From contig JAIYBN010000001.1 of NCBI GenBank assembly GCA_027488515.1, positions 811 through 64,810 on the forward strand: a stretch of DNA of 64,000 nt, in the 5' to 3' direction. This document shows, one piece after another, positions 4,798-55,059 of this stretch. This DNA comes from Pseudomonadota bacterium (GTDB taxonomy: Bacteria > Bdellovibrionota > UBA1018 > CAIMNF01). The notes under the pieces were generated by a model. It saw only the letters and a program-made list of their open reading frames with translations, ran no database searches and was not told where the DNA came from. The stretch's first letter is position 1. Every line of letters begins with the position of its first letter. The position numbers and the translations under genes were made by a program.

Positions 4798-4866
4798 TTC
4801 AGCTCAATGATCCATATTCGGGCCTGAGACTTACCGGATTCCGGGTCTCGGGCCCGGGAAAGCAAC

Positions 4867-6027
4867 ATGGCAGACAAACGCGATTACTACGAAGTACTGG
4901 GTGTTCAAAGGGGAGCGGGGGCTGAAGAGATCAAAAAAGCCTTCCGGAAACTCGCCGTACAGTTTCATCCGGACAAGAACCCCGGAGACAAAAAATCCGA
5001 GGACAAGTTCAAGGAAGTCAACGAAGCCTACGAGCACCTCTCCGACCCCCAGAAGCGCAAGATGTACGACCAGTTCGGTCATGCAGCCGCGAACATGGGT
5101 GGAGGCGGACAAGGTCCTTTCGGAGCCGGCGGCCCGTTCGGTGGCGGTGGTGGCGCAGCTGATTTCGGAGACATTTTCGGGGACATCTTCGGAGACATTT
5201 TCGGTGGTGGACGCGGGGGACGTGGCGGCGCTCGGGGAAGACGTGCACGCGCTGGAGCTGATCTTGAAACCCAGGTCGATATCACTTTCGAGGAGGCGTA
5301 CAAAGGCGTCGAGAAGGTGATCACTTTGAACAAGCGGGTGGATTGTGAAACCTGCCTGGGGTCGGGAGCCAAGCCAGGAACCTCTCCCGAGACCTGTAAG
5401 ATCTGCAGTGGACGGGGAGAAGTCACTTTTCAACAGGGGTTTTTCGCGGTTTCGCGTCCTTGCACCCACTGTCATGGGACAGGACAGACCATCACCTCAC
5501 CCTGCGGGGGCTGCAAGGGCCAGGGAAAGACCAAGAAAACATCCCAGCTCAAAGTCACCATTCCAGCCGGGATCGACACGGGCCAACGCCTGAAATTGTC
5601 CAATGAAGGCGAGGCGGGCGAGCACGGCGGACCTCCGGGCGATCTGTACATCGTGATTCAGGTCATGGACCATGACTTCTTCAAACGGGAGGGGGCGGAC
5701 ATCATTTGTGATGCACCGATCACGTTTGTCCATGCGGCACTCGGTGCCGAACTCGACATTCCTACTCTCGATGGTAAAGTCGAGATGAAAATCCCCCCGG
5801 GAACCCAGTCGCACAAGGTCTTCAGACTGAAGAGCAAGGGACTCCCCCACATCGGCCGCGGAGGTCGTGGCGATCAGCTCGTCCGTGTGATCGTCGAAGT
5901 CCCGAATCGCTTGACGAATGAACAAGCCGAGCATCTTCGTAAGTTTGCCGAATTGACCCAGAAAGACGGCAGGGCCCATCCCTTGTCACACGGGTTTTTC
6001 GAACGGGTGAAACGTATTTTCAATTGA
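4867..6027 (+). CDS. dnaJ: Molecular chaperone DnaJ (Hsp40, type I).
   Basis: J domain with HPD, a Gly/Phe-rich region, four CxxCxGxG zinc-finger repeats and a C-terminal domain. Confidence 0.95.
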
Positions 6028-7048
6028 GCCCTGAGCAGAGATCCGGTGAATTGCGGTGCTTGATCCGTTCCAGCACCTGCTCGACCGCTTTTGCTTCCTG
6101 ACTCACCCCGGACTTGGCTGCCTGTTCCAACATACGCTGGACCAGCTCCACGGCCTTTTTGCCACCGATCTGCTCGGTCGCCAGCAACCAGACCGAACGT
6201 CCCGCAAAGTCATTCTCTTTGCCGATCCCTTCCTCGATCCACTTCCACCGCTCGTGAGGGCACACCTTCGGCAAATATTCCACGGCAACCCTGCGCAAGC
6301 CTGCATCTTCATGGTGGATCCACTTGGAGATCTCACGAACCACCGACGGATCCCTCTCCTGAAATAGCGCGCGAAGAGCCAATTGCTTCGACATGCCGTC
6401 GAAGTCCCCCGCGATCACTTTCCGGTTCATTCCCCTCACCCGTTCATCGGAACCGAACATGCGATTCAGCTCGATCAAAGGGGCCGCATTCTTCTTGCCC
6501 AATTCCTTCTGGCCGATTTCCATCATCTCCTCTTTGGTGTCCCGGACCTCGTCTTTTCCCTTTTGTGACTGATGCAGAGCTGCAAGCGCTTCCATCCGCT
6601 CTGGAACGGGTAGGTCCTTCACTTCAAGCGTCTTCTTCAACCACGCCACCTGTCCTTCACCCGGTTTTTCCCGCATTACATGGACGATGTGACTCCGGAC
6701 CAGCGGATGAGGGTCCGCCTGCAACGATTCGAACACCTCCAGGAAGTCCTTTCCTTCCTGGCTCCCGCTTGCATAAGCCACCCCCGCTCGAACCAAAGGT
6801 TGCTCATGCTTGGCCAAAGACAGAATGACCTTGGCATCGTCTTTTCGAGCCGAACTCCCCACAGTGAGAATGGACCGGTACAGGGTTCCCGGGTCGGTAC
6901 CTTCCGGGTTGCGGAGGATCCGTATGGATCGGTTCAATGCCTCCTGCGAAGGATCAACAACTCCTTGACGCTTCAAGGCCCAAAACAGTCCCGCCCCGAG
7001 CAATCCGACCACCATCACCGAAACCGCAATTTTCTTCACTGAACTCAT
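6020..7048 (-). CDS. HEAT-repeat (PBS-lyase HEAT-like) protein with an N-terminal membrane anchor or signal.
   Basis: N-terminal hydrophobic segment, and repeated DP..VR..A helical-repeat motifs ([43 protein letters not shown]). Confidence 0.6.
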
Positions 7049-7112
7049 GACACCAGTGTCTCACGGGTCACTTGCTCCTTGCAATTCCGGCACGAGGCTT
7101 TAGCCTGAAATC

Positions 7113-7913
7113 ATGAACCTTTCTTCCATTCTCGGCATCGCCGCCGCCATACTGGTCCTGCTGGTCTCGGTATTCACCTCAACGAGCAACTCGAAGATTT
7201 TCCTCGATCCTCATGGCATCCTGATTGTCATCGGAGGAACGGCAGCAGCGGGAATGCTCTGCTTCCCGCTCAAGACTTACCTCAGGGTACTCACCGTCCT
7301 GAAAAACAAAATCTTGGGGAACTATGCGTTACGCTACGACACCGTCATCAACGAGTTGGTCGACCTGGCGAAAGGCATGCGTGACAACCCTGAATACGCC
7401 AGAAACAAGGCAAAGTCGGTCAATACGCCATTCTTGAAAGACGCTCTCGAGCTCATGAACCTGGGTGGGATCTCGGAAGAATCCCTGGATGAGATCCTCC
7501 TGAAGCGCGCAGAGACCTACTCGAAGCGTTATGACCATGACGCAGTGGTGATCAAGGCCCTCTCCAAATTCCCGCCTGCATTCGGACTCATGGGGACCAC
7601 CCTCGGAATGATCTCATTGCTCCAACAGCTGGGCGGTAAAGATGCACAAAAATTCCTCGGGGTGTCGATGGCACTCGGGCTGGTTGCGACCTTTTACGGG
7701 ATCGTCCTCGCCAACCTGGTCTTCATCCCGATCGCTGAGAATCTCACTGCAGTGAACAAAGAAGATGAAACAGTCCGGGCGATCGTGATCGACGGATTGC
7801 GTCTGATCCGGAAAAAGGAACACCCGAAAATGGTCGAGGAGTATCTGAAGAGCTACCTCCTTCCCCATGAACGTTCGTCCCTCAAGACCGGTGCGGCGGC
7901 TGCAAAAGCATGA
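7113..7913 (+). CDS. motA: MotA/PomA-family stator protein, a proton-channel subunit of the MotA/TolQ/ExbB family.
   Basis: Four-TM topology with a large cytoplasmic loop and the conserved C-terminal TM3/TM4 region (GLxGTxxGM). It is translationally coupled to motB by a 4-nt overlap. Confidence 0.85.
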   Translation: MNLSSILGIAAAILVLLVSVFTSTSNSKIFLDPHGILIVIGGTAAAGMLCFPLKTYLRVLTVLKNKILGNYALRYDTVINELVDLAKGMRDNPEYARNKAKSVNTPFLKDALELMNLGGISEESLDEILLKRAETYSKRYDHDAVVIKALSKFPPAFGLMGTTLGMISLLQQLGGKDAQKFLGVSMALGLVATFYGIVLANLVFIPIAENLTAVNKEDETVRAIVIDGLRLIRKKEHPKMVEEYLKSYLLPHERSSLKTGAAAAKA

Positions 7914-8650
7914 GCGATCAAATTCCTCCATCCATCAAGCACCTGAAGCGCCCTTACCAGTCCCATGCATCGGGTGAGGACCACTCGGACGGGAACTGGC
8001 TCGTCTCCTATGCGGACATGATGACCCTCCTGGTGGGATTCTTCATCATCCTTCTGAGCTTTTCAAAGATCGACGATGAGGTCTTCGAGAAATTCAAAGA
8101 GGTGGTCGCCAAGGAATTCGGAGGGAGCTACCAGGTTCCTTACGGTGAACTCGGGGACCGCATCCAGAAGATCCTCGAGAAACAAGGTGTGGCCAATCAG
8201 TTCGCTGTGAAACAGACTCCTCTCGGGGTCGAGATTTCGTTTCTCGGAGCGGTATTTTTCGATACCGGATCTGCTGACATCAAGCCCGAAGCCCAATCCC
8301 TCATGAACACACTCCTTCCTGTTCTCAAGCAGGAGGCAGGACAATTCCAGGTGATTGTCGAAGGTCATACCGACGATGTCCCGGTAGGGAACAAAAGCCG
8401 GTTTCTCAACAACTGGGAACTTTCAGGAATCCGCGCAAGCAAAGTGATCGGCCTGTTCGAACAATACGGGTTCACCAAGTCGGTGCTCACCTCGGTGGGT
8501 TACGCGGACGGACGTCCCCTTTTTCCCAACCGGAGTACCTCGGGAGATCCCATTGAAACCAACCAGGCCAAAAACCGCCGGGTGGTGATCAAGCTGATCC
8601 ATCAAGGTGAAGGGCTGATGGGAAAACCTGAGGAAAAAGGCAAAACCTGA
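7910..8650 (+). CDS. motB: MotB-family stator protein with an OmpA-like peptidoglycan-binding domain.
   Basis: N-terminal WLVSYADMMTLL plug/TM region with a conserved Asp, and a C-terminal OmpA_C-like domain (NRRVVIKL). Confidence 0.85.
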   Translation: MSDQIPPSIKHLKRPYQSHASGEDHSDGNWLVSYADMMTLLVGFFIILLSFSKIDDEVFEKFKEVVAKEFGGSYQVPYGELGDRIQKILEKQGVANQFAVKQTPLGVEISFLGAVFFDTGSADIKPEAQSLMNTLLPVLKQEAGQFQVIVEGHTDDVPVGNKSRFLNNWELSGIRASKVIGLFEQYGFTKSVLTSVGYADGRPLFPNRSTSGDPIETNQAKNRRVVIKLIHQGEGLMGKPEEKGKT

Positions 8651-29530: not shown

Positions 29531-30574
29531 CCCCTAACTGTCCCCTTTGACTTCACCTGAAATACTGTCAAGATCGGATCAATACCGTATTGTGGTAGCG
29601 CAGGTAAATATACAGGTGATCTATCAGTCCCTCAGGCTTCTTGGTCGTGCACCAGGTGCGTCGAAAAAGCCGATTGAGATTCGCTCTCAGCATCGCGCAG
29701 GTATGGTTGAGCGCAAAAAGCGGATCAAAGACGAGTTTCTTCAACTCTCCCTGCCCCGTGATTGCACCCCGAGCACCCGGGTGAGCGATGTGATCCACAT
29801 TCTTCAGGTGTCTTTTGATGAACCTCGGGTAATGTGGATTCTGATCAGACTCAAGAATTGATCCGGAATGCACCACGGGTTTCAGTGTCCTGAACAGGAG
29901 ATCCCAGCCATTCGGGCGCTCGTCTTTGCGGTACCCGTACTTACGTCTTGAAATCTCGGCAAGCTTTCCCCTGGCAGGCATCCGCGAAACCTGAAAGCCC
30001 AGTATTTCTCGGGTGTTTTTGCTTACAGCTAAAGATACGCTCAAGGGTTTGCACTTGGTGTGTTCAAAGGTCTCTAAGTCATCAAACTGGATCTCTGAGA
30101 TTGGGGTACCTGCGAGTTCAATCAGTCTACTTTCATGCTCAGCCTTCGCTCGTGCTGCTACCATTCGAAATTTTCGTACAATCGTCTTTGGATTGACCCG
30201 AAGGAGAATCGCCATCCGTCGCTGACTCACTCCGGATGAGAACAGTTGCGCGACCACATGATTGAGGTCGCGCTTTTTCTGTCGATAGTCGGGGGAATGG
30301 GTACTTGCCGAGAAGTGGCGCCCACAATTTTTACAATGATACTTTGTGATGAACCGCCGGTCACGTGTCCGGTAGAAGGAGCCTTTCCGGACGATGAGTC
30401 TTGATCCAGGACTCGACTTTCCACCTGGATTTAGGAGGGAGGGCTGACGATCGCAATTGGGGTTCGGACAGCGTCTTTTCATGACCCAAGCAAAGGCAAG
30501 TCAAAGGCCAATGAGCGCAGGGTCTTGGAATCTTCAGCTGGACCGGAAAGGGAAGCATAAGGGGGCAGTTGGGG
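29531..30574 (-). mobile_element. Insertion sequence of about 1.04 kb (IS1595-family-like or IS1-like) with imperfect terminal inverted repeats.
   Basis: The left end 29531..29547 (cccctaactgtcccctt) and the right end 30559..30574 (reverse complement ccccaactgccccctt) match at 15 of 17 positions with 1 gap. A single transposase ORF lies inside. Confidence 0.7.
29568..30482 (-). CDS. IS transposase with an N-terminal zinc ribbon and a DDE domain, IS1595-like or IS1-like.
   Basis: N-terminal C2C2 motif (CPNPNC...CKNCGRHF), followed by an acidic-residue-containing catalytic region (FDDLETFEH..., ILESDQNPHY). 304 aa. Confidence 0.75.
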   Translation of the reverse strand: MKRRCPNPNCDRQPSLLNPGGKSSPGSRLIVRKGSFYRTRDRRFITKYHCKNCGRHFSASTHSPDYRQKKRDLNHVVAQLFSSGVSQRRMAILLRVNPKTIVRKFRMVAARAKAEHESRLIELAGTPISEIQFDDLETFEHTKCKPLSVSLAVSKNTREILGFQVSRMPARGKLAEISRRKYGYRKDERPNGWDLLFRTLKPVVHSGSILESDQNPHYPRFIKRHLKNVDHIAHPGARGAITGQGELKKLVFDPLFALNHTCAMLRANLNRLFRRTWCTTKKPEGLIDHLYIYLRYHNTVLIRS

Positions 30575-31213
30575 CTAGAATTGGAAGTAGGCAGCCGCCC
30601 CCACCGAGAAATAACTCAAACTCGACGGTTCCGGCCCTGTGGTCGTTGCGGTGAACGAAGTCGCAAGCTCGCCTCTGACCCCGAATCCCTTTGAACTGAG
30701 TGGGACGTCTGCACCGAGGCGGGCCCCGAAAAACAAGGCCGACGCACTCAGGCTCGTGACCAGGTCGGGTGGAGGACGCTCAATCGTACCACTCGCCAGA
30801 CCGATCCCTGCCCCGAGATACGGGAGAATTCGTCTGACCAGAAGGGTGGTTTCCGTTCCAGAATCATTCGACCCCCACGACTGCTGAAAGAGGTAATACC
30901 GTGCGAAAACACCGGTGAACCCCACCCCGGCCGAGAACGGTCCTAGTCTGAAGCCCCTCGAGTGGCTGATCGCGGCAGTGAGTCGGTCGCTCAGGATCCT
31001 TTCGATCCCGATCTCCATCGTCCCGATTCCTTCACTCCGGGTCACCAGTCCCGGAACACTCGATGTCAAAGAGGAGTTTCTCTTGATACCGGCGCCCCCG
31101 AACCCGAGCCCTACCACTGCGCGGTAGTCACCCGCCCATACATCCGTCGTCATCAGCAACAGCGGAATGAGCAGGAGTTTCGGATCAAGCCGCATTACGA
31201 TCCGCCGAATCAT
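30575..31213 (-). CDS. Small outer-membrane beta-barrel protein of the OmpA/OmpW-like 8-strand class.
   Basis: Signal peptide, alternating beta-strand pattern, and a C-terminal Phe (…AAAYFQF) typical of OMPs. It overlaps the upstream gene by 29 nt. Confidence 0.65.
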   Translation of the reverse strand: MIRRIVMRLDPKLLLIPLLLMTTDVWAGDYRAVVGLGFGGAGIKRNSSLTSSVPGLVTRSEGIGTMEIGIERILSDRLTAAISHSRGFRLGPFSAGVGFTGVFARYYLFQQSWGSNDSGTETTLLVRRILPYLGAGIGLASGTIERPPPDLVTSLSASALFFGARLGADVPLSSKGFGVRGELATSFTATTTGPEPSSLSYFSVGAAAYFQF

Positions 31214-32996
31214 CCTGGTCCCCGAAAGATCCCTGATATGCCATGATCAATTGGATCTCTCCTGCATCCACCAACTGGCGGACACGCGTCGCCAACTGGT
31301 TCAGGAGGATGTTCTGTTCCTTCTCGGTGAAGCTGTTCTCACGTTCGAGGTCGTCAGAAGCCACGATCGCAGTCATCGGAGGACAAAGGCCGATCACGCG
31401 GTCACGGCTGTCCATGCGCATCCGCAAGAATGCCACCACTTCATCCGGCATCGCCTTGGAGAACACCGGTCTCAAGGCAGAGTCATTCCACTCATGCAGG
31501 AAGGCGAGGCTGAACTGGGAACACTTGTACGCTTCGATGCCCGGACCCGAAAGCTGAGGCAAGAGCGCCATCTCTTCCATCGGGGTGAAAGCCGAGATCA
31601 ACTTCTGCAAAGCGGACTCGATGACCACCACGTCTTTCCGGTCGTCCGGACGGATGCTGGAGCGGAATTGATGCTCGTAGTTCCTCAAGTCGTCGGTTGC
31701 GATCTCGCTCATGCTCAATGCTTCATTGAGGAGCTCCAACTTGGTTTCCTCGTCCTGGTTCGACACATACTGCTGTCTCAAACCTTCCGGCATGAACATC
31801 GCCACGAGAGTCTTCATCTTCGAGTTCTGCTGGATGAGAACCTCTTGAAGCATGTTGTTCTTCATCGAAGAGACATAAGAGAACGGGCGTTCCAGTGCCT
31901 CGGAACCGAGGTTCATCACCATCATGATGTCCCAGTAAACCTTTTTCAGGAGGTCGCGCTTCTCGACCGGAGAAACTTCGGGCATCTTGCTGAACGCATT
32001 GGAAAGGTCTTTCATCGCATCGGCGGGGACGGGAAGCTTACCCATCTCGGACCCGACCGCTTCAGAAAAACAAGCCATCCGCATCATTCCCTCGTCACCC
32101 ATGTCACACCAGGAACGCACCAGGTTTTCCGACTCGCCGGCCAGTTTGGAAACGAGGTGGAGGAGCCGCTTGTTGTAATCACGGATCTCTCGAACCGCCT
32201 TGGCTTCCTCCGCTTCATTCCTGACCGTCTCGATGGTTCCATCCGAGCTGGCGTTGGACGCCCCGCTCTGATTCACCGTACTTGCACCCGCTGAGTCTGC
32301 GGCGGCTGCCCGCTCTGCAGCTTCCATCTTCTGGCTACGATTGTTGAACAAGCCCCACATCAGGGCAGCTGCGAAAATGGCGAAGGCGAGCACCAGCTGG
32401 CCTGCGAGGCCTTGGAATTGCTCGAGCTTCTCGAAAAAACTCCGCTGATTCTCGACCGGATCCGCATAGTACGCGACCGTGACGTTCGCAGAGCTCCCGA
32501 ACTCGCCGCTCACACGCTGCTTGAGCCAGGTTTCAATCTGTTCCTTGGCCGCATTCTGGACCGAGGGTTTCAGACCCACCCGGATGTTGGCGGTCTTGAC
32601 GCGGTAATCGCCGACGAACTGGTTGATCTTGGCACGAAGTTCAGGGGTCATGGCCGCCTTCAGGGCCTCGTCCAAGTCAATGGAGCCGAGCAAAAGGTCG
32701 CCAGGAAGTCCGTTCTCTTCCTCTTCCTCTTCTGGCTTGTCGGTCTCACGGGCTTTTTCAACCAGAACCAACTCGGCTCCCACTGTGAAGCTCTGACGAT
32801 CGATGAACGTGGAGAGCCCTTGGGAATAACGCTTGATCAAGAGGTCTTCGAGCAAGGCCTTCGCAGAAATCGCCCCACCCTCGAGTCCGAGGGTGTCTGA
32901 ACCTTTGACCGACGGTGCAGCGTCTGCCGGGGCTGCTCTTGCCGAGGTGTGGAAAGGAAGAATGAACAACGCGATCCAGAGAAAAAGCCGCTTCAT
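31185..32996 (-). CDS. Bitopic inner-membrane protein with a signal peptide and periplasmic N-domain, a single TM, and a cytoplasmic domain with a FliG-C/MgtE-N-like C-terminus.
   Basis: Signal peptide, and a central TM segment (QLVLAFAIFAAALMWGLF). The C-terminal ...EKEQNILLNQLATRVRQLVDAGEIQL resembles the FliG C-terminal motif ending in GEI. Confidence 0.6.
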   Translation of the reverse strand: MKRLFLWIALFILPFHTSARAAPADAAPSVKGSDTLGLEGGAISAKALLEDLLIKRYSQGLSTFIDRQSFTVGAELVLVEKARETDKPEEEEEENGLPGDLLLGSIDLDEALKAAMTPELRAKINQFVGDYRVKTANIRVGLKPSVQNAAKEQIETWLKQRVSGEFGSSANVTVAYYADPVENQRSFFEKLEQFQGLAGQLVLAFAIFAAALMWGLFNNRSQKMEAAERAAAADSAGASTVNQSGASNASSDGTIETVRNEAEEAKAVREIRDYNKRLLHLVSKLAGESENLVRSWCDMGDEGMMRMACFSEAVGSEMGKLPVPADAMKDLSNAFSKMPEVSPVEKRDLLKKVYWDIMMVMNLGSEALERPFSYVSSMKNNMLQEVLIQQNSKMKTLVAMFMPEGLRQQYVSNQDEETKLELLNEALSMSEIATDDLRNYEHQFRSSIRPDDRKDVVVIESALQKLISAFTPMEEMALLPQLSGPGIEAYKCSQFSLAFLHEWNDSALRPVFSKAMPDEVVAFLRMRMDSRDRVIGLCPPMTAIVASDDLERENSFTEKEQNILLNQLATRVRQLVDAGEIQLIMAYQGSFGDQDDSADRNAA

Positions 32997-33751: not shown

Positions 33752-35140
33752 ATGCTGACCGAAAATGGAAAAACAGGATCGACTGCGACAGGAAAAAACC
33801 GGGCGACCGCCACGTCCTGGTATTATCTGGATGGCGATGTCGAGAAGCGGATCTCTTGGGATGCCTTGCTCATGGCCTACGATCTGGGGCAAATCAAGGG
33901 AACCACCTTGGTTTGGTCCACTGACTTGAGCGGTTGGCAACGCCTCGAGACCGTTCTGGGTGAACGGTCGATCCGGCGTCCGGTGATGGGCGCCCCTCAG
34001 AAGCCACAGTCTCCCCGTCCGAACTCTCCGACAGGCTCATCCCGTCCCCTGACGAGTGGCTCTGCCACCGTGGATGCCCCGGTTTACGCCAGCAACCGTC
34101 CGGACCCCGCCCCCCGGTACAGCGACACCACAGTGGAAGTCGCGGCGGCTCCGAGAAGAGCGTCTTATCCGGTCCGGATCATCGAGATTCCCAGGATCGA
34201 GGTCCGCACGGTTGAGTCCAAGCGGATCTCGATTCCCACACAGCTCATTGGCGCGATTCTCCTCGTCGCAGGGACCTGGTGGTATGCGGCGCCGAAGTCC
34301 GCCCCTTTTGAGACCCTTCAAGCCGACATGAGCCAGGAAGACTACTTCCGGGTGAATTCCCTTTTCAAAAGCACGGATGCCCGGAACGAGACCCTGATCG
34401 CTGCCATCCGGGGCAAAGGATTCACTCCTGCTTTCCACGTTTTTTCGAAGCTTCCTGACCAGACTGAACTCCAACTGTCCTTGAAAGGGGTTCCGGGTAC
34501 TCTTCTCAATCAGCCCAGATACGAGTCGCGTCAACGGGTGAAGATCCGGCAGGGACGAGCCACAAGCGAGAACTTCGTCAATCATGACGGAGGTCCTCTT
34601 CCGTACGGCGAATACACTCTCAGTGTGACTTCGATCGCAAACGGCGAGCTCCTTTCTGAACGGACTTATTTCATCGCGGGCCAAAAGCCTGCCGACTACG
34701 AGAATCAACTGAAGGCCTCTCTCGAGGCCCATGCACTGAAAGCCAAGAACGAGAAAAAAGAACTGGTCCAGATTTTGAACCTCATCCGGAACCAGTTTGA
34801 GCTGAACGCCTCCCGATTCAATCACTACTACAACCGGGTTTCGACAGGACAAACCATGATGACCTGGCCGAAATTCCGGGCGGAATGGGCGACGACCCAG
34901 GACCAGATCCGGATGACCCTTGAAAGCGGCAATCCGACAGAGGTCCGGAACACCCGGATCCTGGAGCAACAGCACCAAGGGATTCTGAATCTGGACAGGG
35001 ACCTGCGTCAACTGCAGGCTGAACAGGATCGCTTCCTGAACAGCGGAGCCAATGACGCCGCGAGTCTGAACCGTCTCGAATCTTTGTCTGAAGAACTCGC
35101 CGAGCAGATCTTCAAGATCCGTTCCAAACTGAATGATTGA
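33752..35140 (+). CDS. Membrane protein with an N-terminal GYF-like (DUF4339) domain, a Pro-rich linker, a TM segment and a C-terminal coiled-coil domain.
   Basis: WYYLDGD...GQIKGTTLVW...GW motif. Pro-rich region. Hydrophobic segment IGAILLVAGTWWYAA. Confidence 0.55.
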   Translation: MLTENGKTGSTATGKNRATATSWYYLDGDVEKRISWDALLMAYDLGQIKGTTLVWSTDLSGWQRLETVLGERSIRRPVMGAPQKPQSPRPNSPTGSSRPLTSGSATVDAPVYASNRPDPAPRYSDTTVEVAAAPRRASYPVRIIEIPRIEVRTVESKRISIPTQLIGAILLVAGTWWYAAPKSAPFETLQADMSQEDYFRVNSLFKSTDARNETLIAAIRGKGFTPAFHVFSKLPDQTELQLSLKGVPGTLLNQPRYESRQRVKIRQGRATSENFVNHDGGPLPYGEYTLSVTSIANGELLSERTYFIAGQKPADYENQLKASLEAHALKAKNEKKELVQILNLIRNQFELNASRFNHYYNRVSTGQTMMTWPKFRAEWATTQDQIRMTLESGNPTEVRNTRILEQQHQGILNLDRDLRQLQAEQDRFLNSGANDAASLNRLESLSEELAEQIFKIRSKLND

Positions 35141-35180: not shown

Positions 35181-36947
35181 ATGGGTGGAATGGCTCACCA
35201 CTGGCGTAAAGCATTGATTTTGTGCGCTTCAATCCTCGCAATTCCGGGGTGCGCCACCCTACCTGCACCCCGCACCGGACTTCCTCCCACCAGGAACACC
35301 GGAGGTGAGAGCTCTTTCGAGTCGGATATCAAAAAGATCCAGGGGATGTACACCCGCGGGGAGTATGCCCGAGCCATCGAGAGCCTGAGTCGGATTCACG
35401 AGCCTGAACTCCGGAACTCGGAAAAAACCGAGTACTGGAACCTGAAAGGACTCGTGCGCCTGGCGGAAAAAAATCCGAATGCGGCCATCATCAATTTCAA
35501 GCGGGCCCTCCAATTCAATCCTTTTCCGGATCACCAGCCCTATTATCAATTCAACCTCGCAACCGCCTATCTCGATGCAGGAAAACCGGCTGAATCCAAA
35601 AAAGCGGCGGATTCCATCCCGATCGATGAAATGGGATCGACCGACCGGAAAAAAGTCATCGCGCTCCGGGAAAGAGTGAACAAGATCCTCGCCGGACAGG
35701 GAGATCAAAAGGCCCTTCCGGAAGGAGCCCAAGCCACACCCACTCCGGTGGCCATGGTCACCCCCACCCCTCCTCCGGCGATGGAACTCTACAGCGGGCC
35801 CGTGAACCGCAAGCGCATCGGAGTACTCCTTCCGCTGAGTGGCAAATACGAGAACTTCGGAAAACGGGTCCAGCGTGCGGTGGAGCTCGCGTTTCAGAGT
35901 TCGACGGATGAGCAAAGCAAATCGTTCGAGTTGATTCCGGTCGACAGCGGTGACTCGGCTGAAAGTCACGAAGTGGCACTGAAGAAGTTGGTGGAAGAGC
36001 AGGAAGTCATCGCCGTCATCGGACCGCTGCTCGGGAAACATCTCGATTCTCTGCGGAACAAAGCGGCCTTTTACCAGATTCCCCTGATCTCGGTGGCGCA
36101 GGTCCAGGGTGACGCGGATCCGCAGATCTTCTCGTGCTCCATTTCGATCCAGGATCAAGCGGCGAGAATTGCGAAGTATGCCGTCCAGACCTTGGGCCTC
36201 ACCCGCTTTGCCATTCTGGGGCCGGACAACAAGGCCGGAGAAGAAATGGCTCATGCCTTCTGGACGGAACTGGAACGGCTCAACGGTGAAGTGAAGGCCT
36301 TCGAACTCTACGACCCCGACCTGACCGACTTCCGTGAGCCGGTGGACAAGACCCTCGGTCTCTTCTACACCGAGACCCGCGCCAAAGAGCTCCAGGAGTT
36401 GGCCGAGAAGCGGAAGGAACTGAACATCACCCGGAAAACCATGAAGACCCAACAGTACTTCAATCTCCCTCCGGTGATGGACTTCGAAGCGGTATTCATC
36501 GCCGACGAGGCGCGAACAGCCGGTCAAGTCATCCCCACTTTCGCTTACCGGGACGCCAAAGGACTCAAATACCTCGGAATTTCATCCTGGAATTCCCCCC
36601 AGCTCATCCAAAGGGCCGGAGACCTGGTCGAGGGCGCGGCGTTTCCTGTCGCATTCAACACCCTGAATCCGCCCGAAGAGACGAAGCAATTTTACGATCT
36701 GTTCCACAGCACCCACTCCAGTTATCCGGGTGAGCTCGAAGCTGTGGCCTTCGACGCTGCGGTCCTCGTCCTGGAGACCCTGAAAGAGGCTCCAGGAACC
36801 CGCGGTGAATTCACCAGTCGACTCGAGGCTCGGAAGAATGTTCCGGGGGCGACCGGATCCCTGAATGTGGTGGGTCACCGTTGCTCGAGGAATCTTGACC
36901 TCTATCGGGTCAAAAAAGGCGCTTTCGAGCCGGTCGGAGAACCATGA
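35181..36947 (+). CDS. LpoA-like lipoprotein: N-terminal TPR domain fused to a type-1 periplasmic-binding-protein (LivK-like) domain.
   Basis: Lipobox IPGC, TPR repeats, and a C-terminal PBP1 fold signature (IAVIGPLLG, FAILGPDN, EAVFIAD). Confidence 0.6.
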   Translation: MGGMAHHWRKALILCASILAIPGCATLPAPRTGLPPTRNTGGESSFESDIKKIQGMYTRGEYARAIESLSRIHEPELRNSEKTEYWNLKGLVRLAEKNPNAAIINFKRALQFNPFPDHQPYYQFNLATAYLDAGKPAESKKAADSIPIDEMGSTDRKKVIALRERVNKILAGQGDQKALPEGAQATPTPVAMVTPTPPPAMELYSGPVNRKRIGVLLPLSGKYENFGKRVQRAVELAFQSSTDEQSKSFELIPVDSGDSAESHEVALKKLVEEQEVIAVIGPLLGKHLDSLRNKAAFYQIPLISVAQVQGDADPQIFSCSISIQDQAARIAKYAVQTLGLTRFAILGPDNKAGEEMAHAFWTELERLNGEVKAFELYDPDLTDFREPVDKTLGLFYTETRAKELQELAEKRKELNITRKTMKTQQYFNLPPVMDFEAVFIADEARTAGQVIPTFAYRDAKGLKYLGISSWNSPQLIQRAGDLVEGAAFPVAFNTLNPPEETKQFYDLFHSTHSSYPGELEAVAFDAAVLVLETLKEAPGTRGEFTSRLEARKNVPGATGSLNVVGHRCSRNLDLYRVKKGAFEPVGEP

Positions 36948-38377
36948 ACCGCCCTGTCCACAGGATCGAATGGGTGGCCTTTTTCATCCTTCTCATCGGG
37001 CATGCAGTGGCAGCTTGGACCTCGTTCGGCTACCACCATCCTGACGAACACTATCAAATCCTCGAGTGGGCCAACCACTTTCTCGGACTCAACCGGGACG
37101 CATCCACACTCCCTTGGGAGTATGCCGCCCAGATCCGGCCTTGGTTCCAGCCCCTGCTCCATGCGGGATGGATGAAACTCCTGATCACTTTCGGCATTTA
37201 CGAACCCTTCACGGCAGCCACCTTGGTTCAGGGAATCTACGGTGCCCTGAACGTGTGGCTTCTCGTGAAAATCTGGAGATTCCTACGGGAACGCTATGAC
37301 CTCGCACCCCACGGCTCCCTGGCGATAGCGCTCCTCTGGTTCCTCCCCTACATCCATGTTCGGACCTCGAGTGAGAACCTCGCCGGCATCTTGCTCTCCT
37401 GGGGTCTGCTTGGAATGTTGCAAAGCAGGAGTGCTTTCAGGAACGGCCTGTTTTTCGGATTCGCCTTCCTGGCCAGGTATCAGATCGCCCTCGGGCTCGC
37501 GGGACTCGGCCTGGCACTGGTGGTCCGGGCAAGGGGAGTCCGGAAGGCCCACTTCGCCCTACTCGGCGGATTCCTGGTCCCACTCGCCTTGGGAGTCCTG
37601 CTGGATCGGATCGGATACGGAAACTGGGTGCTCAGCCCCTACCTCTATTTCAAGGTGAACCTGCTGGACGGGGTCGCAGCACGCTACAATCCCTATCCCT
37701 GGTGGATGTATTTTGAATGGATCCTCCAATTGAATCCGCTGGTTTCGATTCCTCTTTTCCTGGGTACACTCGGGTTCTTCAAAAACGCAAAAGAGGAAGA
37801 CGGGTGGGTGCTTTCTCCGTTCGTGTGGTCATTCTTCATACTCCACTGCCTGATCACCAACAAAGAATACCGGTTTCTCTTCCCGGTCATGAACTGGGTG
37901 CCCTTCATGGCCCTCGTTCATTTCCAGAATTTCTCGATCAAGATGTCCCGTCCGGCTTGGTGGATCCCCTTCGCAATCGTCAATCTTCCGGCTTTTGCGA
38001 TCTCGACCCTCCACGGAGCTTCCATGCGAACGCTCGGGGCGCCCTTTCTGGCACACAGGAATCTCGATCCTGCTCTACCGGTGGTGGCCGCCCGTGATTA
38101 CCGGGGTCAGCCACCCTACTATACCTTTGCGGACCACCCACTGACCGTCTTCGGGAGTCCTGAAGAACTCGGAAGATCCCTTGAAAAGCCCGGGCCTACC
38201 CAGGTGCTCCTCGACGGCAAAGCGGACGATCCGGCATACGAGCGGATTCGAATGACCCTGGAAAAAAGATCCTGCCATTTGCGGGATTCAGTGGTCCCCG
38301 AGTGGCTCGGAAAGATCATTCTGAAAACGCCTGCAGGTCGTTCACTCCCCCGGATCGAATGGCACTATTGCCCTTAG
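36944..38377 (+). CDS. Integral-membrane GT-C glycosyltransferase of the GT22 (Alg9/PIG-B-like mannosyltransferase) family.
   Basis: Conserved N-terminal loop motif HPDEHYQ (HxDExFQ signature of Glyco_transf_22). More than 10 predicted TM helices. 4-nt overlap with the upstream LpoA-like gene. Confidence 0.55.
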   Translation: MNRPVHRIEWVAFFILLIGHAVAAWTSFGYHHPDEHYQILEWANHFLGLNRDASTLPWEYAAQIRPWFQPLLHAGWMKLLITFGIYEPFTAATLVQGIYGALNVWLLVKIWRFLRERYDLAPHGSLAIALLWFLPYIHVRTSSENLAGILLSWGLLGMLQSRSAFRNGLFFGFAFLARYQIALGLAGLGLALVVRARGVRKAHFALLGGFLVPLALGVLLDRIGYGNWVLSPYLYFKVNLLDGVAARYNPYPWWMYFEWILQLNPLVSIPLFLGTLGFFKNAKEEDGWVLSPFVWSFFILHCLITNKEYRFLFPVMNWVPFMALVHFQNFSIKMSRPAWWIPFAIVNLPAFAISTLHGASMRTLGAPFLAHRNLDPALPVVAARDYRGQPPYYTFADHPLTVFGSPEELGRSLEKPGPTQVLLDGKADDPAYERIRMTLEKRSCHLRDSVVPEWLGKIILKTPAGRSLPRIEWHYCP

Positions 38378-38384
38378 ATTGCCC

Positions 38385-40064
38385 TCAGGCGCGGGCACTT
38401 TCAATCAGGTCTTTGGCGTTTTTCAATGCGGCAGGCGTGAGCTTTTCGGATCCGAGCATTCGCGCAATCTCATCCCGGCGCTCGGCATCACTCAAGCACC
38501 GCACCTCGGTGACCGTACGACCTTTCGAAGATTGTTTGCTGATGGAAAGGTGGTGATCGGCGAAGCAGGCCACTTGGGGCACATGGGTGATGCACAACAC
38601 CTGGTTGTATCCGGCCACCGACTTCAATTTTTTCCCCACCGTGAAAGCGGTCTGTCCGCCCAATCCTGCATCGATCTCGTCGAACAGATAGACTCCGATG
38701 CCGCCCTTGTCCGCGATCACCCTCCGAATGGCCAGCATCAGACGGGACAATTCGCCACCGGAAACGATCTTCTGGATCGGCTTTTTCTCCTCACCGAGAT
38801 TCGTCCGGACCAGGAGCTCTGCTACGGTCCCCAGGGACTCGCCTCCCCACGAAGCGAGGTCATCCGAGAAAACGAGCGAAAATCCGACTTCGGCGTCCTG
38901 CATGCGGAGCTCTTTCAGCTCCTTGGAAACGGCCTTGCTGAGACCATCCGCTCCTTTTTTGCGCTTCTCGAAAAGTTCCTTTGCGAGCTTGAGAGCCACC
39001 TTCCTTTCCTCCCCGTACTCGCTCTCCAGCGAATCCAAACGGGTCGAAAGATGGGTCAGGAGATCGATTTCCTCACGGAGCTTCACCTGATACCCGATGA
39101 TTTCATCGAGGAGGTTTCCGTACTTCCGTTTCAGATTCGTGATCAAGCTCAGACGCTCCTGGACCTGCTCCAGGCGGTCCGGACTCAGGTCTGCGCGTGA
39201 GGTGTAAGCCCTCGATGCATGGGCGGCGTCTTCGACCTCGGCCAATGCCCTTTCGATCGAGGATTGGAGGGACTCGACACCCTCATCCATCTGACACAAG
39301 GACTTGACCTTGGAGAGTGCGATCCGGAGCGCATTGAGGGCTCCTTCCTCACCATCCAGAGCATCATGAACCTGGTTCGCAAGTGACATCCTTTGCCCGA
39401 CAGACTGCAGGAGGCGTTTTTCAGTCGCAAGGGTTTCGTCTTCTCCGGGAACCAAGGCCGCCGCTTCCAACTCCTCGAGTTGAAACTGCAAAAACGCGAG
39501 GCGCTGGACACGTTCCTCTTCCTTTTTCTTGAGCGACTCCCACTCTTCGAGCAAAGTCACGGTCTTGCGGTACTGGGTCGACGCTTTTTTCTGCAGATCT
39601 TCGATGCCGGAAAACCGGTCCAGAAGCGCGATCTGGACGACCGACTTGAAGAGTGACTGGTGTTCGTGTTGACCACACAGATCGATCAAATCCTCACAAA
39701 CCGTCGAGAGCATGTTCAAAGTCGCAAGTTGCCCGTTCAAGAAGATCCGGTTTTTCCCGCTCTTGCTGACTGTGCGCTTGATCAGCAATTCGTTTCCGTC
39801 GCATTCGATACCGATTTCCTGCAGCCGGACCTTGAGCCAGGGAAGTTGTTCAATGTCAAAATACCCTTCCACCACCGCCTCGTCCGCTCCTGAACGGATG
39901 GTCTCGCTGTTGGCACGTCCTCCGAGCAGAAGTGAAATCGCCTCGAGGACGATGGACTTCCCGGCGCCCGTTTCTCCGGACAGGATGTTGAGACCCCGCT
40001 CGAAGGGGATCTCGGCATTCTCGATCAGGGCGAAATTACGGATCTTGATGGTCTGGATCATCAC
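38385..40064 (-). CDS. recN: DNA repair protein RecN.
   Basis: N-terminal Walker A (GETGAGKS), a long coiled-coil middle, a C-terminal signature and D-loop. 559 aa. Confidence 0.93.
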   Translation of the reverse strand: MMIQTIKIRNFALIENAEIPFERGLNILSGETGAGKSIVLEAISLLLGGRANSETIRSGADEAVVEGYFDIEQLPWLKVRLQEIGIECDGNELLIKRTVSKSGKNRIFLNGQLATLNMLSTVCEDLIDLCGQHEHQSLFKSVVQIALLDRFSGIEDLQKKASTQYRKTVTLLEEWESLKKKEEERVQRLAFLQFQLEELEAAALVPGEDETLATEKRLLQSVGQRMSLANQVHDALDGEEGALNALRIALSKVKSLCQMDEGVESLQSSIERALAEVEDAAHASRAYTSRADLSPDRLEQVQERLSLITNLKRKYGNLLDEIIGYQVKLREEIDLLTHLSTRLDSLESEYGEERKVALKLAKELFEKRKKGADGLSKAVSKELKELRMQDAEVGFSLVFSDDLASWGGESLGTVAELLVRTNLGEEKKPIQKIVSGGELSRLMLAIRRVIADKGGIGVYLFDEIDAGLGGQTAFTVGKKLKSVAGYNQVLCITHVPQVACFADHHLSISKQSSKGRTVTEVRCLSDAERRDEIARMLGSEKLTPAALKNAKDLIESARA

Positions 40065-41017
40065 TTTCCTCCGAAGTTGAGTTTTTCACGCAGCAGGGAA
40101 AAATAATCGCGGTTGGGTGAGGTTACGATCTTGAGTTTGTGTTTTTTGAACCTCGAAATACGGATCAGATCCCCGTCCTTCAGGTCGAGGCCGTTCTGCC
40201 CGTCGAGGGTCAGGTAGACGTGACCGGGCATGGACTCAAGCATCAATTCGACATTCACATCGTCCGGAAGGACCAAAGTTCGCTGAGTCAGGCCGTGCGG
40301 ACAGATCGGTGTGAGCAACATGCACCCGAGATGGGGCATGACAATCGGACCGCCCGCTGCGAGCGAATAAGCGGTCGAACCGGTCGGAGTGCTGATGATC
40401 ATCCCGTCCGCACGGACCGTATTGGCCCACTCGCCGTTGACATTGATTTTCACCCCGATGATCCGTGCGATCGCACCCTTGGAAACCACCGCATCATTGA
40501 CCACCAGGTCCTTGAGCACGGTCTTGCCCTTCCGGATCACACTCACCTCGAGCATGACACGCTCTGAAATCGCAATGGATCCGGTGTTCAGGATCCGGTG
40601 GATGACATCGTGGAGCTCGTCCTTGCGGACTTCAGTGAGGAATCCGAGAGTACCCATGTTGATCCCGAGAATCGGGATACTCACGTCCTTCATCAGACGT
40701 GCCGCACTCAGATAAGTGCCGTCACCTCCGAGTACGACGATGAGATCGACCTTGCGGGCCAGCACCGACTTCTTGACCACTTTCAATTTACGGAAACGCT
40801 CGGACCCGAGCGAACGGAGCACTTTGGCACTCTCGTCACAGAAATAAACCTGGTAGCCCCGGTTGAGCAGGAGATCGGCCAACTCGAGAGACAAGGCAGC
40901 AGCCTCATTGTGATGGTGCTTGATGATGATTCCGAGACGCTGGACCTTGATCTTCATTTCTCCACGTTTTCTCCCAAATCCCGCCAAAATGCCACATTGA
41001 CAATCGGTTTTTGACAT
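40061..41017 (-). CDS. nadK: NAD(+) kinase.
   Basis: GGDGT motif (VVLGGDGTYL), NE/D short motif and DGxxxxTPTGSTAYSLSAGG motif. 4-nt overlap with recN. Confidence 0.92.
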   Translation of the reverse strand: MSKTDCQCGILAGFGRKRGEMKIKVQRLGIIIKHHHNEAAALSLELADLLLNRGYQVYFCDESAKVLRSLGSERFRKLKVVKKSVLARKVDLIVVLGGDGTYLSAARLMKDVSIPILGINMGTLGFLTEVRKDELHDVIHRILNTGSIAISERVMLEVSVIRKGKTVLKDLVVNDAVVSKGAIARIIGVKINVNGEWANTVRADGMIISTPTGSTAYSLAAGGPIVMPHLGCMLLTPICPHGLTQRTLVLPDDVNVELMLESMPGHVYLTLDGQNGLDLKDGDLIRISRFKKHKLKIVTSPNRDYFSLLREKLNFGGK

Positions 41018-52578: not shown

Positions 52579-55059
52579 ATGGTAACTAACTACGACGGCG
52601 AACAGATTGAAATCCCACAAACACTACCGATGCTTCCTGTACGGGATATTGTTGTATTTCCCTATATGATCATTCCTTTATTCGTGGGTCGTGATTCTTC
52701 CATCCGTAGCGTGGAAGAAGCGCTTTCCAAAACCGACCGCCTGATTTTTCTTTCTTCCCAGAAGAACATCGCGGACGAACAACCGACTCCGGACGGAATT
52801 TACGAAACCGGAACCGTCGCCATGATCATGCGCATGCGCAAGCTCCCCGACGGCCGGATCAAAATCCTGACTCAGGGCCTGTGCAAAGCCCGTGTCAAGA
52901 AATTCACTCAAACCGCTCCTTTCTACGAAGTGCAAGTGGAACAGGTCCAGGAAGTGGCCAACGAGAAAAAGGCCGAATCCGAAGCCCTCATGCGCACCAT
53001 CAAAGAACAGATCGAACGGATGATCAGCCTCGGCAAGGTTCTTGCCCCTGACATCATGATGGTTCTCGAGAACATCACCGAGCCGAGCCGCATGGCGGAC
53101 CTCGTCGCCTCCAACCTCGGACTGAAGGTCAGCACGGCCCAGGATGTGCTCGAAATCCACGACCCGTTCGTGAAGCTCCAGAAGATCAACGAGATCCTCA
53201 CCAAGGAGACCGAAGTTCTGAGCATCCAGGCGAAGATCCGTTCGCAAACCAAGGATGAGATCAGCAAGTCGCAGAAGGAATATTTCCTCCGCGAACAGAT
53301 GAAGCAGATCAAGAGCGAACTCGGCGACAATGATCCCAAGGCAGAGGAAATCAACGAACTCCGCGAGAAGGTCATGAACGCCAAGATGCCGGCGAATGTC
53401 GAGCAAGAAGCCATGAAACAGCTTCAGCGCCTCGAACGCATGCATCCTGAAAGTTCCGAAGCTTCGATGATGCGGACCTACATCGAATGGATGACCGACA
53501 CCCCTTGGGGCAAGGCGTCTGTCGACAATCTCGATCTCGATCACGCAATGGAGATCCTGGACGACGATCATTACAAGCTCGACAAGATCAAAGAGCGGAT
53601 CATCGAATTCCTCGCGGTCCGTAAGCTCAAAAAGGACAACATGAAGGGGCCGATCCTGTGCTTCTCCGGTCCTCCGGGTGTCGGTAAGACCTCCCTCGGG
53701 AAGTCGATTGCCAAGGCCCTCGGCCGTGAATTCGTCCGGATCTCCCTCGGCGGAGTGAAGGATGAAGCGGAAATCCGCGGTCACCGCCGGACGTACGTCG
53801 GCGCCCTCCCCGGTCGTATCATCCAAGGCTTGAAGCAAGCGGGAACCAACAATCCCGTCTTCATCCTGGACGAGCTCGACAAGATGGGGACCGACTACAA
53901 AGGCGATCCTTCGGCTGCATTGCTCGAAGTGCTCGATCCGGAACAGAATTACGCGTTCCGCGACCACTACCTCAATGTGCCGATCGACCTGACCAATGTC
54001 ATGTTCATCACCACTTGTAACGCCCTCGAGCAGATTCCGGCGCCTCTCCGCGACCGGATGGAAGTGATCCAGCTCTCCGGATACACCCAGGAAGAGAAAC
54101 ACTTCATCTCTCGCAGATACTTGATCGAGAAGCAGATCCTCGAAAACGGGCTCACTTCCGACCAGATCGAATTCACCGATGCCGGTATCAGCGCCATCGT
54201 CGAGAACTACACCCGTGAAGCCGGGTTGCGGAATCTCGAACGCCTGGTGGGAACCGTCTGCCGCAAGACCGCTCGCATGGTGGCTGAAGGCAAGACCGAC
54301 CGCACCGTGATCGATCCTGCGATGGTGGCCAAGTTCCTCGGACCAGCGGTTTACTCCCGCGAAGACGAGCAGGAAAGGGACGAGGTCGGTATTTCGACCG
54401 GACTCGCCTGGACCTCGGTGGGTGGCGAGATCCTCTATGTGGAGACCGCTACGACCCGCGGCAAGGGGGGCATGCTCCTCACCGGCCAGCTCGGCGATGT
54501 GATGAAGGAATCGGCACAGGCCGCTCTCGGTCTGATCCGGTGGCGCGCAGCCGACTTCGGAATCAACTCCGACGTACTGAGCGAAACCGACATCCATGTG
54601 CACTTCCCTCAGGGAGCCATCCCCAAGGACGGACCTTCAGCCGGGATCACCATGGCCACAGCCATGATCTCCCGCCTGACCGGAATCCCGGTCCGCAGGG
54701 ATGTGGCGATGACCGGTGAAATCACCCTCACCGGCCGGGTGCTCCCGATCGGCGGACTGAAGGAGAAATCCCTCGCCGCGATGAGACACGGGATCAAGAC
54801 CATCATCATTCCGGAGAAGAACCGGAAAGACCTGGAAGAGATCCCCGAAGAGTACCGCAAGCACCTCAACTTCGTACCGGTGAAATCCATCGATGAAGTG
54901 CTCGAGGTGGCCCTCACCGAGAAGATCCTTCCGATCGAAGGAAACCTCCCCGGTGCCGGCGGCGAAACTCACGAGACCCGTCCTACCAAGACCAAGAAAC
55001 AGAAACCGGTTGCGGCAGCCGAACCTGCTGTTGCCAAATCAACCAAGCGTGCCGCTTAA
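52579..55059 (+). CDS. lon: ATP-dependent Lon protease.
   Basis: LON N-domain, AAA+ (GPPGVGKTS), protease domain (PKDGPSAG). 826 aa. Confidence 0.96.

Follow-up and report, generated by a model that had tools for sequence, protein, structure and literature searches.

We analysed a 64,000-nucleotide stretch of contig JAIYBN010000001.1 (positions 811 to 64,810 of the forward strand; assembly GCA_027488515.1), hereafter the window, from a Pseudomonadota bacterium that GTDB places in Bdellovibrionota. On the + strand it carries two open reading frames (ORFs), the first at 35181-36947 (588 aa) encoding an LpoA-like lipoprotein and the second at 36944-38377 (477 aa) encoding a polytopic protein of glycosyltransferase family 22 (GT22). 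The ORFs share 4 nt, ATGA at 36944-36947, where the ATG of the GT22 gene lies on the TGA of the lipoprotein gene. The second protein is our main subject, and its features are as follows.

36944-38377, + strand: gene for the 477-aa GT22 (PF03901) glycosyltransferase of the GT-C class, modelled with 11 transmembrane helices, N-terminus in and C-terminus out
37037-37057, + strand: HPDEHYQ, residues 32-38; D34/E35, where the first helix of periplasmic loop 1 begins, would be the catalytic base
37136-37138, + strand: R65 (in QIRPW), invariant, aligned to the ALG9 donor-phosphate ligand R112
37475-37477, + strand: R178 (in LARYQ, loop between transmembrane helices 5 and 6), invariant, aligned to the ALG12 donor-phosphate ligand R185
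37859-37876, + strand: NKEYRF, residues 306-311, the GT22 HKExRF motif, with K307, R310 and F311 invariant
38012-38374, + strand: alpha/beta domain at the C-terminus (residues 357-477), predicted to lie in the periplasm, which carries Cys444 and Cys476 and shows strands and helices in the AlphaFold2 model

The sole Pfam family matched by the 477-aa protein at E ≤ 0.1 is PF03901 (Glyco_transf_22, Alg9-like), whose match of 105.4 bits (gathering score 23.8, E 5e-30) spans residues 10-357, or model positions 1-362 of 414. No GT39, GT83 or PMT_2 Pfam match appeared at that threshold, and no NCBIfam model was matched. PF03901 is carried by all 120 listed homologues, a few distant ones also bearing a weak PF13231 (PMT_2) annotation. 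A single-sequence phmmer search with the 477-aa protein against PDB sequences returned no match. A profile made from an alignment of 33 diverse homologues, searched against the same sequences, recovered human ALG9 (4e-14) and chicken ALG12 (7e-11) and nothing else significant. On the same alignment AlphaFold2 produced a model with a mean predicted local distance difference test score of 90.9 and a predicted template-modelling (TM) score of 0.89. The top Foldseek matches of this model in the PDB are ALG12 (9s6t, E 1e-8, TM 0.63) and ALG9 (9s6s and 9s6u, 6-8e-8), the TM values for the two enzymes ranging from 0.57 to 0.63, and weaker matches comprise STT3 (3e-5 to 1e-4), ArnT (~2e-4), ALG6, Pmt4 (2e-2), PIG-M and PimE. 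ALG9, ALG12 and PIG-B, eukaryotic mannosyltransferases of the endoplasmic reticulum (ER), have a genuine bacterial relative in the 477-aa protein, and we regard its family membership, its fold and the conservation of its catalytic and donor-binding residues as established here.

A structural study of ALG3, ALG9 and ALG12 published in 2026 places the catalytic base, D82 in ALG9 and E35 in ALG12, on the first helix of lumenal loop 1, within a fold of 7+4 transmembrane helices followed by a C-terminal lumenal domain (PMC13503287). In the bacterial protein, D34, E35 and Q38 of HPDEHYQ are invariant in 33 of 33 diverse homologues, and the first helix of loop 1 covers residues 35-47 in the model, with D34/E35 at its start. 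The motif is not a chance match; judged from this alignment it is the conserved catalytic motif of GT22, with D34/E35 as the putative base. Further residues that do not vary in the alignment are E41, W58, E59, R65, R140, S142, E144, R178, D221, K307, R310 and F311. HMMER profile alignments to ALG9 and ALG12 were then read column by column, all eight of the residues checked falling as expected at a chain offset of +6. In the solved structures the ligands of the donor phosphate are R112 and R370 of ALG9 and R67, R185 and R312 of ALG12 (PMC13503287); besides the R65 and R178 columns given above, R310 aligns with both ALG9 R370 and ALG12 R312. Three residues, ALG12 R67, ALG9 R428 and ALG9 R577, lie outside the aligned region. 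On the acceptor side, ALG12 H140 aligns with F133, ALG12 R271 with a non-conserved Leu column and ALG9 N309 with a Trp column. These alignments indicate an active site whose donor side is conserved and whose acceptor side is not. Because the two ALG12 residues are not kept, the acceptor would not be the eukaryotic dolichyl-pyrophosphate glycan.

Model helices and hydropathy together give 11 transmembrane segments. With the N-terminus inside, lysine and arginine account for 14 of the 48 residues of the cytoplasmic segments and 9 of the 108 in the periplasmic loops. On this distribution the periplasmic side would include the DE loop, R140/E144, R178, K307/R310 and the C-terminal domain. Within that domain Cys444 and Cys476 co-vary perfectly among the 33 aligned homologues, both being present in 27, neither in 6 and a single one in none. 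The pattern fits a disulfide formed in an oxidising compartment, which we infer for this pair.

The gene is functional and evolves under purifying selection, faster than its neighbours. Compared with its counterpart in the close relative L001, the GT22 protein is 79.5% identical with a ratio of nonsynonymous to synonymous substitution rates (dN/dS) of 0.10, the LpoA-like protein 89.6% identical with dN/dS 0.05, and RecN 96.2% identical with dN/dS 0.02. Ratios are given against L001 alone since synonymous divergence is saturated for the more distant relatives L081 and L082. Fast evolution is common among envelope-modifying enzymes.

A first-pass annotation of this DNA, made from the letters alone, had described the two ORFs, the polytopic 477-aa product and the 4-nt overlap just as they are found here, and had assigned the protein to GT22 on its motif. 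The PF03901 scan it proposed bears this out, and best matches to GT39 or GT83, which it had named beforehand as the outcome that would overturn the assignment, appeared neither in Pfam nor in the fold search nor with the profile. The topology model puts HPDE in a periplasmic loop, as in the topology check it had proposed. It was likewise right about the upstream gene, a lipoprotein combining tetratricopeptide repeats (TPR) with a type 1 periplasmic-binding-protein (PBP-type-1) domain as in LpoA, for which the matches to TPR_2, LppC and Peripla_BP_6 and the signal peptide with its Cys are detailed below.

The same annotation had called the family rare in bacteria, a view that the counts contradict. 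When one genome of each GTDB species was scanned with a pattern, at least 560 bacterial species genomes had a confirmed GT22 relative. Among the matches listed are Bdellovibrionota, many Bacteroidota, Myxococcota, Gemmatimonadales, Kapaibacteria and others, and the closest genomes among them are Bdellovibrio and Bdellovibrionales metagenome-assembled genomes (MAGs). A profile search of 1.84 billion representatives of 50%-identity clusters retrieved 7,949 proteins at E ≤ 1e-3, 4,967 at 1e-10 and 1,940 at 1e-30, and the best 150 of these are all full-length, at ~480-520 aa. Many homologues are named "phosphatidylinositol glycan class B" or "GPI mannosyltransferase 3" by JGI (GPI, glycosylphosphatidylinositol), and one is a "Mannosyltransferase" in UniRef, so the databases already file bacterial homologues under GT22. 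The 477-aa protein is therefore one more member of a known, already annotated family and not by itself a discovery. No bacterial member that has been characterised emerged from literature searches on PF03901, GT22 and Glyco_transf_22; one apparent match for bacterial GT22 proved to be "GT2_2".

A 2016 study of the evolution of N-glycosylation (Lombard) reported that the lumenal glycosyltransferases are apparently restricted to eukaryotes and that BLASTp returned no prokaryotic homologues (PMC4973528). The occurrence of GT22 relatives in at least 560 species, belonging to Bdellovibrionota, Bacteroidota, Myxococcota and further phyla, raises the idea that bacterial GT22 proteins form an old and widespread prokaryotic lineage of the ER-lumenal mannosyltransferases, although we rate this as rather unlikely. 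Were it true, the bacterial proteins could be put forward as the source, or as the sister group, of ALG9, ALG12, PIG-B and PIG-Z, and diderm bacteria would possess a periplasmic glycolipid pathway using polyprenyl-phosphate mannose, possibly including mannosylation of lipid A in Bdellovibrio-like predators. A tractable bacterial GT22 that retains all donor-binding and catalytic residues would be a simple system in which to seek the bacterial acceptor, and would also aid in tracing the origin of the eukaryotic lumenal glycosylation enzymes. In our view the interest lies in this biochemistry and evolutionary position, not in the locus, whose other features are these.

35181-36947, + strand: gene for the 588-aa LpoA-like outer-membrane lipoprotein, comprising signal peptide and lipobox, TPR, linker and PBP-type-1 domain
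35181-35252, + strand: signal peptide ending in a lipobox-like IPGC (Cys24), read from the sequence
35727-35780, + strand: linker rich in Pro and Thr (ATPTPVAMVTPTPPP) that joins the TPR to the PBP-type-1 domain, read from the sequence
35814-36920, + strand: PBP-type-1 domain, residues 212-580 (Peripla_BP_6 101.6 bits, LppC 59.5 bits)
36936-36947, + strand: gene junction, with GGAG at 36936-36939, a 4-nt spacer and the GT22 ATG
38385-41017, - strand: recN and NAD kinase (nadK) genes, convergent with the GT22 gene, the conserved right-hand edge of the syntenic backbone

The upstream protein begins with a lipoprotein signal containing the lipobox Cys (MGGMAHHWRKALILCASILAIPGC). The lipobox pattern occurs in 54 of 72 members of the LpoA-like family, the listed non-matching members also having [QN]GC after the signal peptide, so that the family as a whole conserves a signal peptide with Cys behind it. 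Its Pfam matches are TPR_2 (28.1 bits, cut-off 27), Peripla_BP_6 and LppC (PF04348, cut-off 28.8), with no NCBIfam model matched. An N-terminal TPR-like region is thus followed by a C-terminal LppC/PBP-type-1 region as in LpoA, though Peripla_BP_6 outscores LppC, and among PDB sequences the LivJ-like 3td9 (1.9e-14) comes before LpoA (5kcn, 3.7e-5) and YraM (3ckm, 2.6e-4). NCBI names its homologues "penicillin-binding protein activator". By domain content the gene has the LpoA-like architecture. The linker could be pictured as a glycosylation site, which is speculation only. At the junction (gtcGGAGaaccATGA) a Shine-Dalgarno-like GGAG stands 4 nt ahead of the GT22 start codon, and no promoter-like or terminator-like site was found between the two genes.

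The first-pass annotation had read this adjacency as a glycosylation step tied to the LpoA-like protein. We compared 80 GT22 loci, with flanks of up to 7 kb, by tblastn and phmmer searches with all window neighbours. Both methods agree on an LpoA-like gene near GT22 in 2 of the 80, L001 (79% GT22 identity) and L002 (75%), and neither tblastn nor sensitive phmmer detected an LpoA-like ORF in the remaining 78. Gene-neighbourhood look-ups added L081 (60%), L082 (54%) and L089 (an identical strain) to the arrangement in which lpoA and GT22 run together towards recN and nadK on the opposite strand. This order was found solely in the window and these five relatives, a single Bdellovibrio-like clade, so that the pairing is limited to relatives with a GT22 identity of about 54% or more. 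L089 and L081 have the same 4-nt overlap, as do L001 and L002 judging from tblastn coordinates; in L082 there is a 4-nt gap in its place. The next-closest relatives keep the backbone, grpE-dnaK-dnaJ-lpoA facing recN-nadK, and have no GT22 gene at that place in any of the four loci. L087 and L088 have no gene between lpoA and recN. In L086 this gap contains genes for a trypsin-like protease and an SBBP beta-propeller protein, and in L083 genes for an M48 peptidase, HxlR and a GNAT; in the L083 genome the GT22 gene lies ~60 kb away on the same contig beside LysR and LigB genes. The ancestral order is dnaK-dnaJ-lpoA facing recN-nadK, and because the gaps of sister lineages are empty or otherwise filled, the lpoA/recN junction is a gap of variable content across Bdellovibrionota, which GT22 fills in one clade only.

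Elsewhere GT22 genes stand beside a chromate transporter, an M3 peptidase, an HD-domain protein, MutY or an SLT transglycosylase. A Pfam census of the 137 nearest GT22 neighbours counted 147 families, of which the sole recurrent one was GT22 itself (six times, as tandem paralogues), with no enrichment of LppC, Peripla_BP, PAP2 or GT2. All-against-all clustering of the flanking ORFs gave, GT22 aside, no cluster present in more than five loci. The two genes do not form a conserved module across independent lineages, and the proposed functional link to the LpoA-like protein is not supported. Inside the clade, co-transcription of GT22 with lpoA is very likely, which is weak evidence for shared function. 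There is a lesson here for annotation, since a 4-nt overlap kept in one clade reflects insertion into a variable gap and not a conserved module.

We consider it likely that the 477-aa protein is a functional, periplasm-facing bacterial GT22 enzyme using a polyprenyl-phosphate sugar as donor, and that its adjacency to lpoA is a lineage-specific accident of gene order. It would sit in the inner membrane with 11 modelled transmembrane helices and its active site towards the periplasm. The part of catalytic base would fall to Asp34/Glu35, located on the first helix of periplasmic loop 1, and Arg65, Arg178 and Arg310 would grip the phosphate of a polyprenyl (undecaprenyl-type) monophosphate sugar and stabilise the leaving phosphate. 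As the protein is bacterial, the donor lipid would have to be a bacterial polyprenol and not the dolichol used by ALG9 and ALG12. By family precedent the sugar is most likely mannose. It would be transferred with inversion onto an acceptor exposed to the periplasm, most plausibly a lipid-anchored envelope glycan or glycolipid, and the disulfide-stabilised C-terminal domain probably helps to select that acceptor. From its place in the lpoA-recN gap the gene would be co-transcribed with lpoA, probably with translational coupling. We infer donor identity, acceptor class and co-transcription; sugar and acceptor are argued from the eukaryotic relatives because the literature searches yielded no biochemical data on bacterial GT22.

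Several observations weigh against this reading. The ALG12 residues that bind the acceptor pyrophosphate, H140 and R271, are not conserved, and what is proposed for donor and acceptor draws by analogy on eukaryotic relatives at only 13-14% identity. The 11-helix topology is a prediction from the positive-inside rule combined with a structural model. The 64-kb window encodes no polyprenyl-phosphate-sugar synthase (GT2). The tight overlap of GT22 with lpoA has been kept through substantial divergence, down to 60% GT22 identity, which a lineage-specific functional link could also explain.

That last point would suit a different explanation, in which the LpoA-like lipoprotein and GT22 are a functional pair, for example through glycosylation of the linker or glycosylation tied to activation of a peptidoglycan synthase. 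The overlap with its internal Shine-Dalgarno-like GGAG, the retention of the arrangement in L089, L001, L002, L081 and L082 (there with the 4-nt gap) down to 54-60% GT22 identity, the PT-rich linker of the lipoprotein, and the peptidoglycan-related SLT lytic transglycosylase upstream of GT22 in L007 and L008 all agree with it. Against it, the LpoA-like gene is absent from 78 of 80 GT22 loci and from the neighbour census; orthologous lpoA loci of sister lineages have gaps that are empty or hold unrelated genes, and the L083 genome keeps both genes ~60 kb apart on one contig. Known GT22 enzymes, moreover, use lipid-linked glycans and not proteins as substrates (PMC13503287, PMC6056205). We judge a functional pair quite unlikely. 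Another alternative is that the gene was inserted into the variable gap as a mere passenger and is decaying or no longer functional, as its lower identity to L001 than those of LpoA and RecN and the lineage-to-lineage variation of the gap would allow; all five relatives retain an unbroken reading frame, dN/dS against L001 is 0.10 and the catalytic and donor-binding residues are all kept, so that decay is very improbable.

Two further alternatives keep the enzyme and change its nature or its target. If HPDE were coincidental and the protein really of PMT/ArnT type (GT39/GT83), the weak PF13231 (PMT_2) annotation on a few distant homologues and the presence of ArnT and Pmt4 lower in the fold search would be explained. 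However, the Foldseek E-values of ALG12 and ALG9 lie some four orders of magnitude below that of ArnT, these two proteins are the only significant PDB matches of the profile, the HKExRF motif is present and aligned, and the Pfam search at E ≤ 0.1 gave neither GT39 nor GT83 nor PMT_2; together the Pfam, Foldseek and profile results rule this identity out, leaving it a negligible probability. The other alternative names the acceptor: an enzyme of the Bdellovibrio-like lineage that transfers alpha-mannose from undecaprenyl-phosphate mannose to lipid A or the lipopolysaccharide core at the periplasmic face, in the manner of ArnT and FlmK. In Francisella, sugar addition to lipid A combines a GT2 synthase of the undecaprenyl-phosphate sugar with a GT-C transferase, and in B. 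bacteriovorus alpha-D-mannose replaces both phosphates of lipid A, according to the mention of Schwudke 2003 in PMC2233673. The predicted periplasmic active site, the conserved donor-binding residues and the rank of Bdellovibrio and Bdellovibrionales MAGs as closest among the matches listed fit as well. Against this, lpx, PAP2-phosphatase and GT2 genes are not enriched beside GT22 genes and none lies in the window, the family is at least equally common in Bacteroidota, Myxococcota and other phyla among the matches listed, and the known lipid A sugar transferases are of GT83 type and not GT22. Lipid A is an attractive acceptor candidate in this phylum to which neither neighbourhood nor taxonomic spread lends specific support, and we hold this assignment to be unlikely.

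The preferred reading, a periplasm-facing GT22 enzyme, can be set against known systems. With ALG9 and ALG12, which are ER-lumenal GT22 enzymes dependent on dolichyl-phosphate mannose, the protein shares its Pfam family and its best structural matches (9s6t, 9s6s and 9s6u); it also shares HKExRF and the donor-phosphate Arg columns represented by R65, R178 and R310, has its putative acidic base likewise on the first helix of loop 1, and according to the model has the same 11 transmembrane helices (7 conserved and 4 variable), the C-terminal domain lying outside the cytoplasm. It differs in being only 13-14% identical, in lacking the acceptor-binding H140 and R271 of ALG12 and N309 of ALG9, for which we do not call it an orthologue, and in the co-varying Cys pair of its C-terminal domain. 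PIG-B and PIG-Z/SMP3, the GPI mannosyltransferases III and IV of GT22, were compared by description, and have in common with it PF03901, 11 transmembrane helices and a catalytic "DE" motif between the first two of them (PMC6056205). The closest functional analogy among bacteria may be ArnT/PmrK and FlmK (GT83), which add aminoarabinose, galactosamine or mannose to lipid A and are likewise inner-membrane GT-C enzymes with a periplasmic site, undecaprenyl-phosphate sugars as donors and an envelope glycolipid as acceptor; ArnT belongs to another family, with a Foldseek E of ~2e-4 compared with 1e-8 for ALG12 and no Pfam match. To our knowledge GPI anchors do not occur in these bacteria, and HPDE[HF][YF]Q is the form of the motif that we take to be most like that of PIG-B and PIG-Z. 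PimE (GT87, mycobacterial, 9dm5) is similar as a bacterial GT-C mannosyltransferase with a polyprenyl-phosphate-mannose donor and a glycolipid acceptor (phosphatidylinositol mannoside), and different in its marginal fold match (E 0.42) and its Pfam family (DUF2029/GT87). LpoA itself (E. coli YraM, H. influenzae LppC), the activator of penicillin-binding protein 1A, resembles the upstream protein in lipoprotein signal, TPR and a PBP-type-1 domain matching PF04348, whereas the upstream protein scores higher on the generic Peripla_BP_6 and on LivJ-like binding proteins. We know of no demonstration of penicillin-binding-protein activation outside Gammaproteobacteria.

Some arrangements seen at individual GT22 loci deserve mention in their own right. 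In two Bdellovibrionales MAGs a gene for an SLT-domain lytic transglycosylase stands directly 5' of GT22 (L007, 5959-7011; L008, 5950-7011), an adjacency that may well be coincidental. Tandem GT22 genes occur as three copies in a Bacteriovoracaceae MAG (L020, ~3100-8371) and two in a Cyclobacteriaceae MAG (L029, 7001-10146); by analogy with the ALG and GPI pathways, these could be sequential enzymes elongating a glycan stepwise. At L084 (6001-11189) the genes after GT22 encode, in this order, a polytopic protein of 492 aa, a GT2 of 244 aa, a length that would suit a polyprenyl-phosphate-sugar synthase, and a polytopic protein of 496 aa; at L004 (6992-11453) GT22 is followed by two polytopic proteins of ~490-500 aa, both genomes being Bdellovibrionota. 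These polytopic proteins have no Pfam record, one has a DDE motif after its first transmembrane helix, and the genes may constitute a small periplasmic glycosylation cluster. As a general partner of GT22 this cluster was rejected, as it recurs just in L004 and weakly in L073 and is not found in the window; the GT2 itself has weak matches only, in L065, L020 and L055. An exact-product look-up held no record of the window GT22 protein, despite the 100% identical protein encoded at L089 (3954-5387), which reflects a limitation of the index and not absence.

The remainder of the window is housekeeping DNA, with genes for a radical SAM protein, dnaK, dnaJ, motAB, dprA, an NtrC-type two-component pair, lon, lipB, 2-oxoacid dehydrogenase E2/E3, three giant surface proteins and an IS1-like ORF. 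Its remaining annotated genes include neither glycosylation genes nor a penicillin-binding-protein gene. The spacing of dnaJ and lpoA is ~29 kb here (dnaJ end 6027, lpoA start 35181), and dnaJ comes immediately before lpoA in L083, L086, L087 and L088. The intervening region, 6028-35180, contains a HEAT-repeat gene, motA/motB, a gene for a LysM protein, three giant ORFs between 13372 and 29528 (1959, 1090 and 2302 aa, with NHL, Big_1, FG-GAP and fn3 domains) and the 304-aa IS1-like ORF at 29568-30482 on the - strand (41 bits, cut-off 100), and may be a large insertion or rearrangement. Flanking the lpoA-like gene are a 603-aa protein gene (31185-32996, -), whose product has a signal peptide and no Pfam family beyond one sub-threshold match at E 0.054, and a 462-aa protein gene (33752-35140, +), whose product has a sub-threshold N-terminal GYF_2 match followed by a Pro-rich region and a transmembrane segment; the latter gene is partly conserved in L001.

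ARAGORN called a 95-nt tRNA-Ala(TGC) at 54802-54896 on the - strand, inside the Lon protease ORF (52579-55059, +), and Rfam gave no tRNA or other RNA family in the window at gathering thresholds; the call is probably a false positive. Beside nadK lies a gene for a RoxA-like dihaem cytochrome c of 563 aa (PF21419; 41041-42732, +), whose synteny is kept in the window, L001, L002, L081 and L082.

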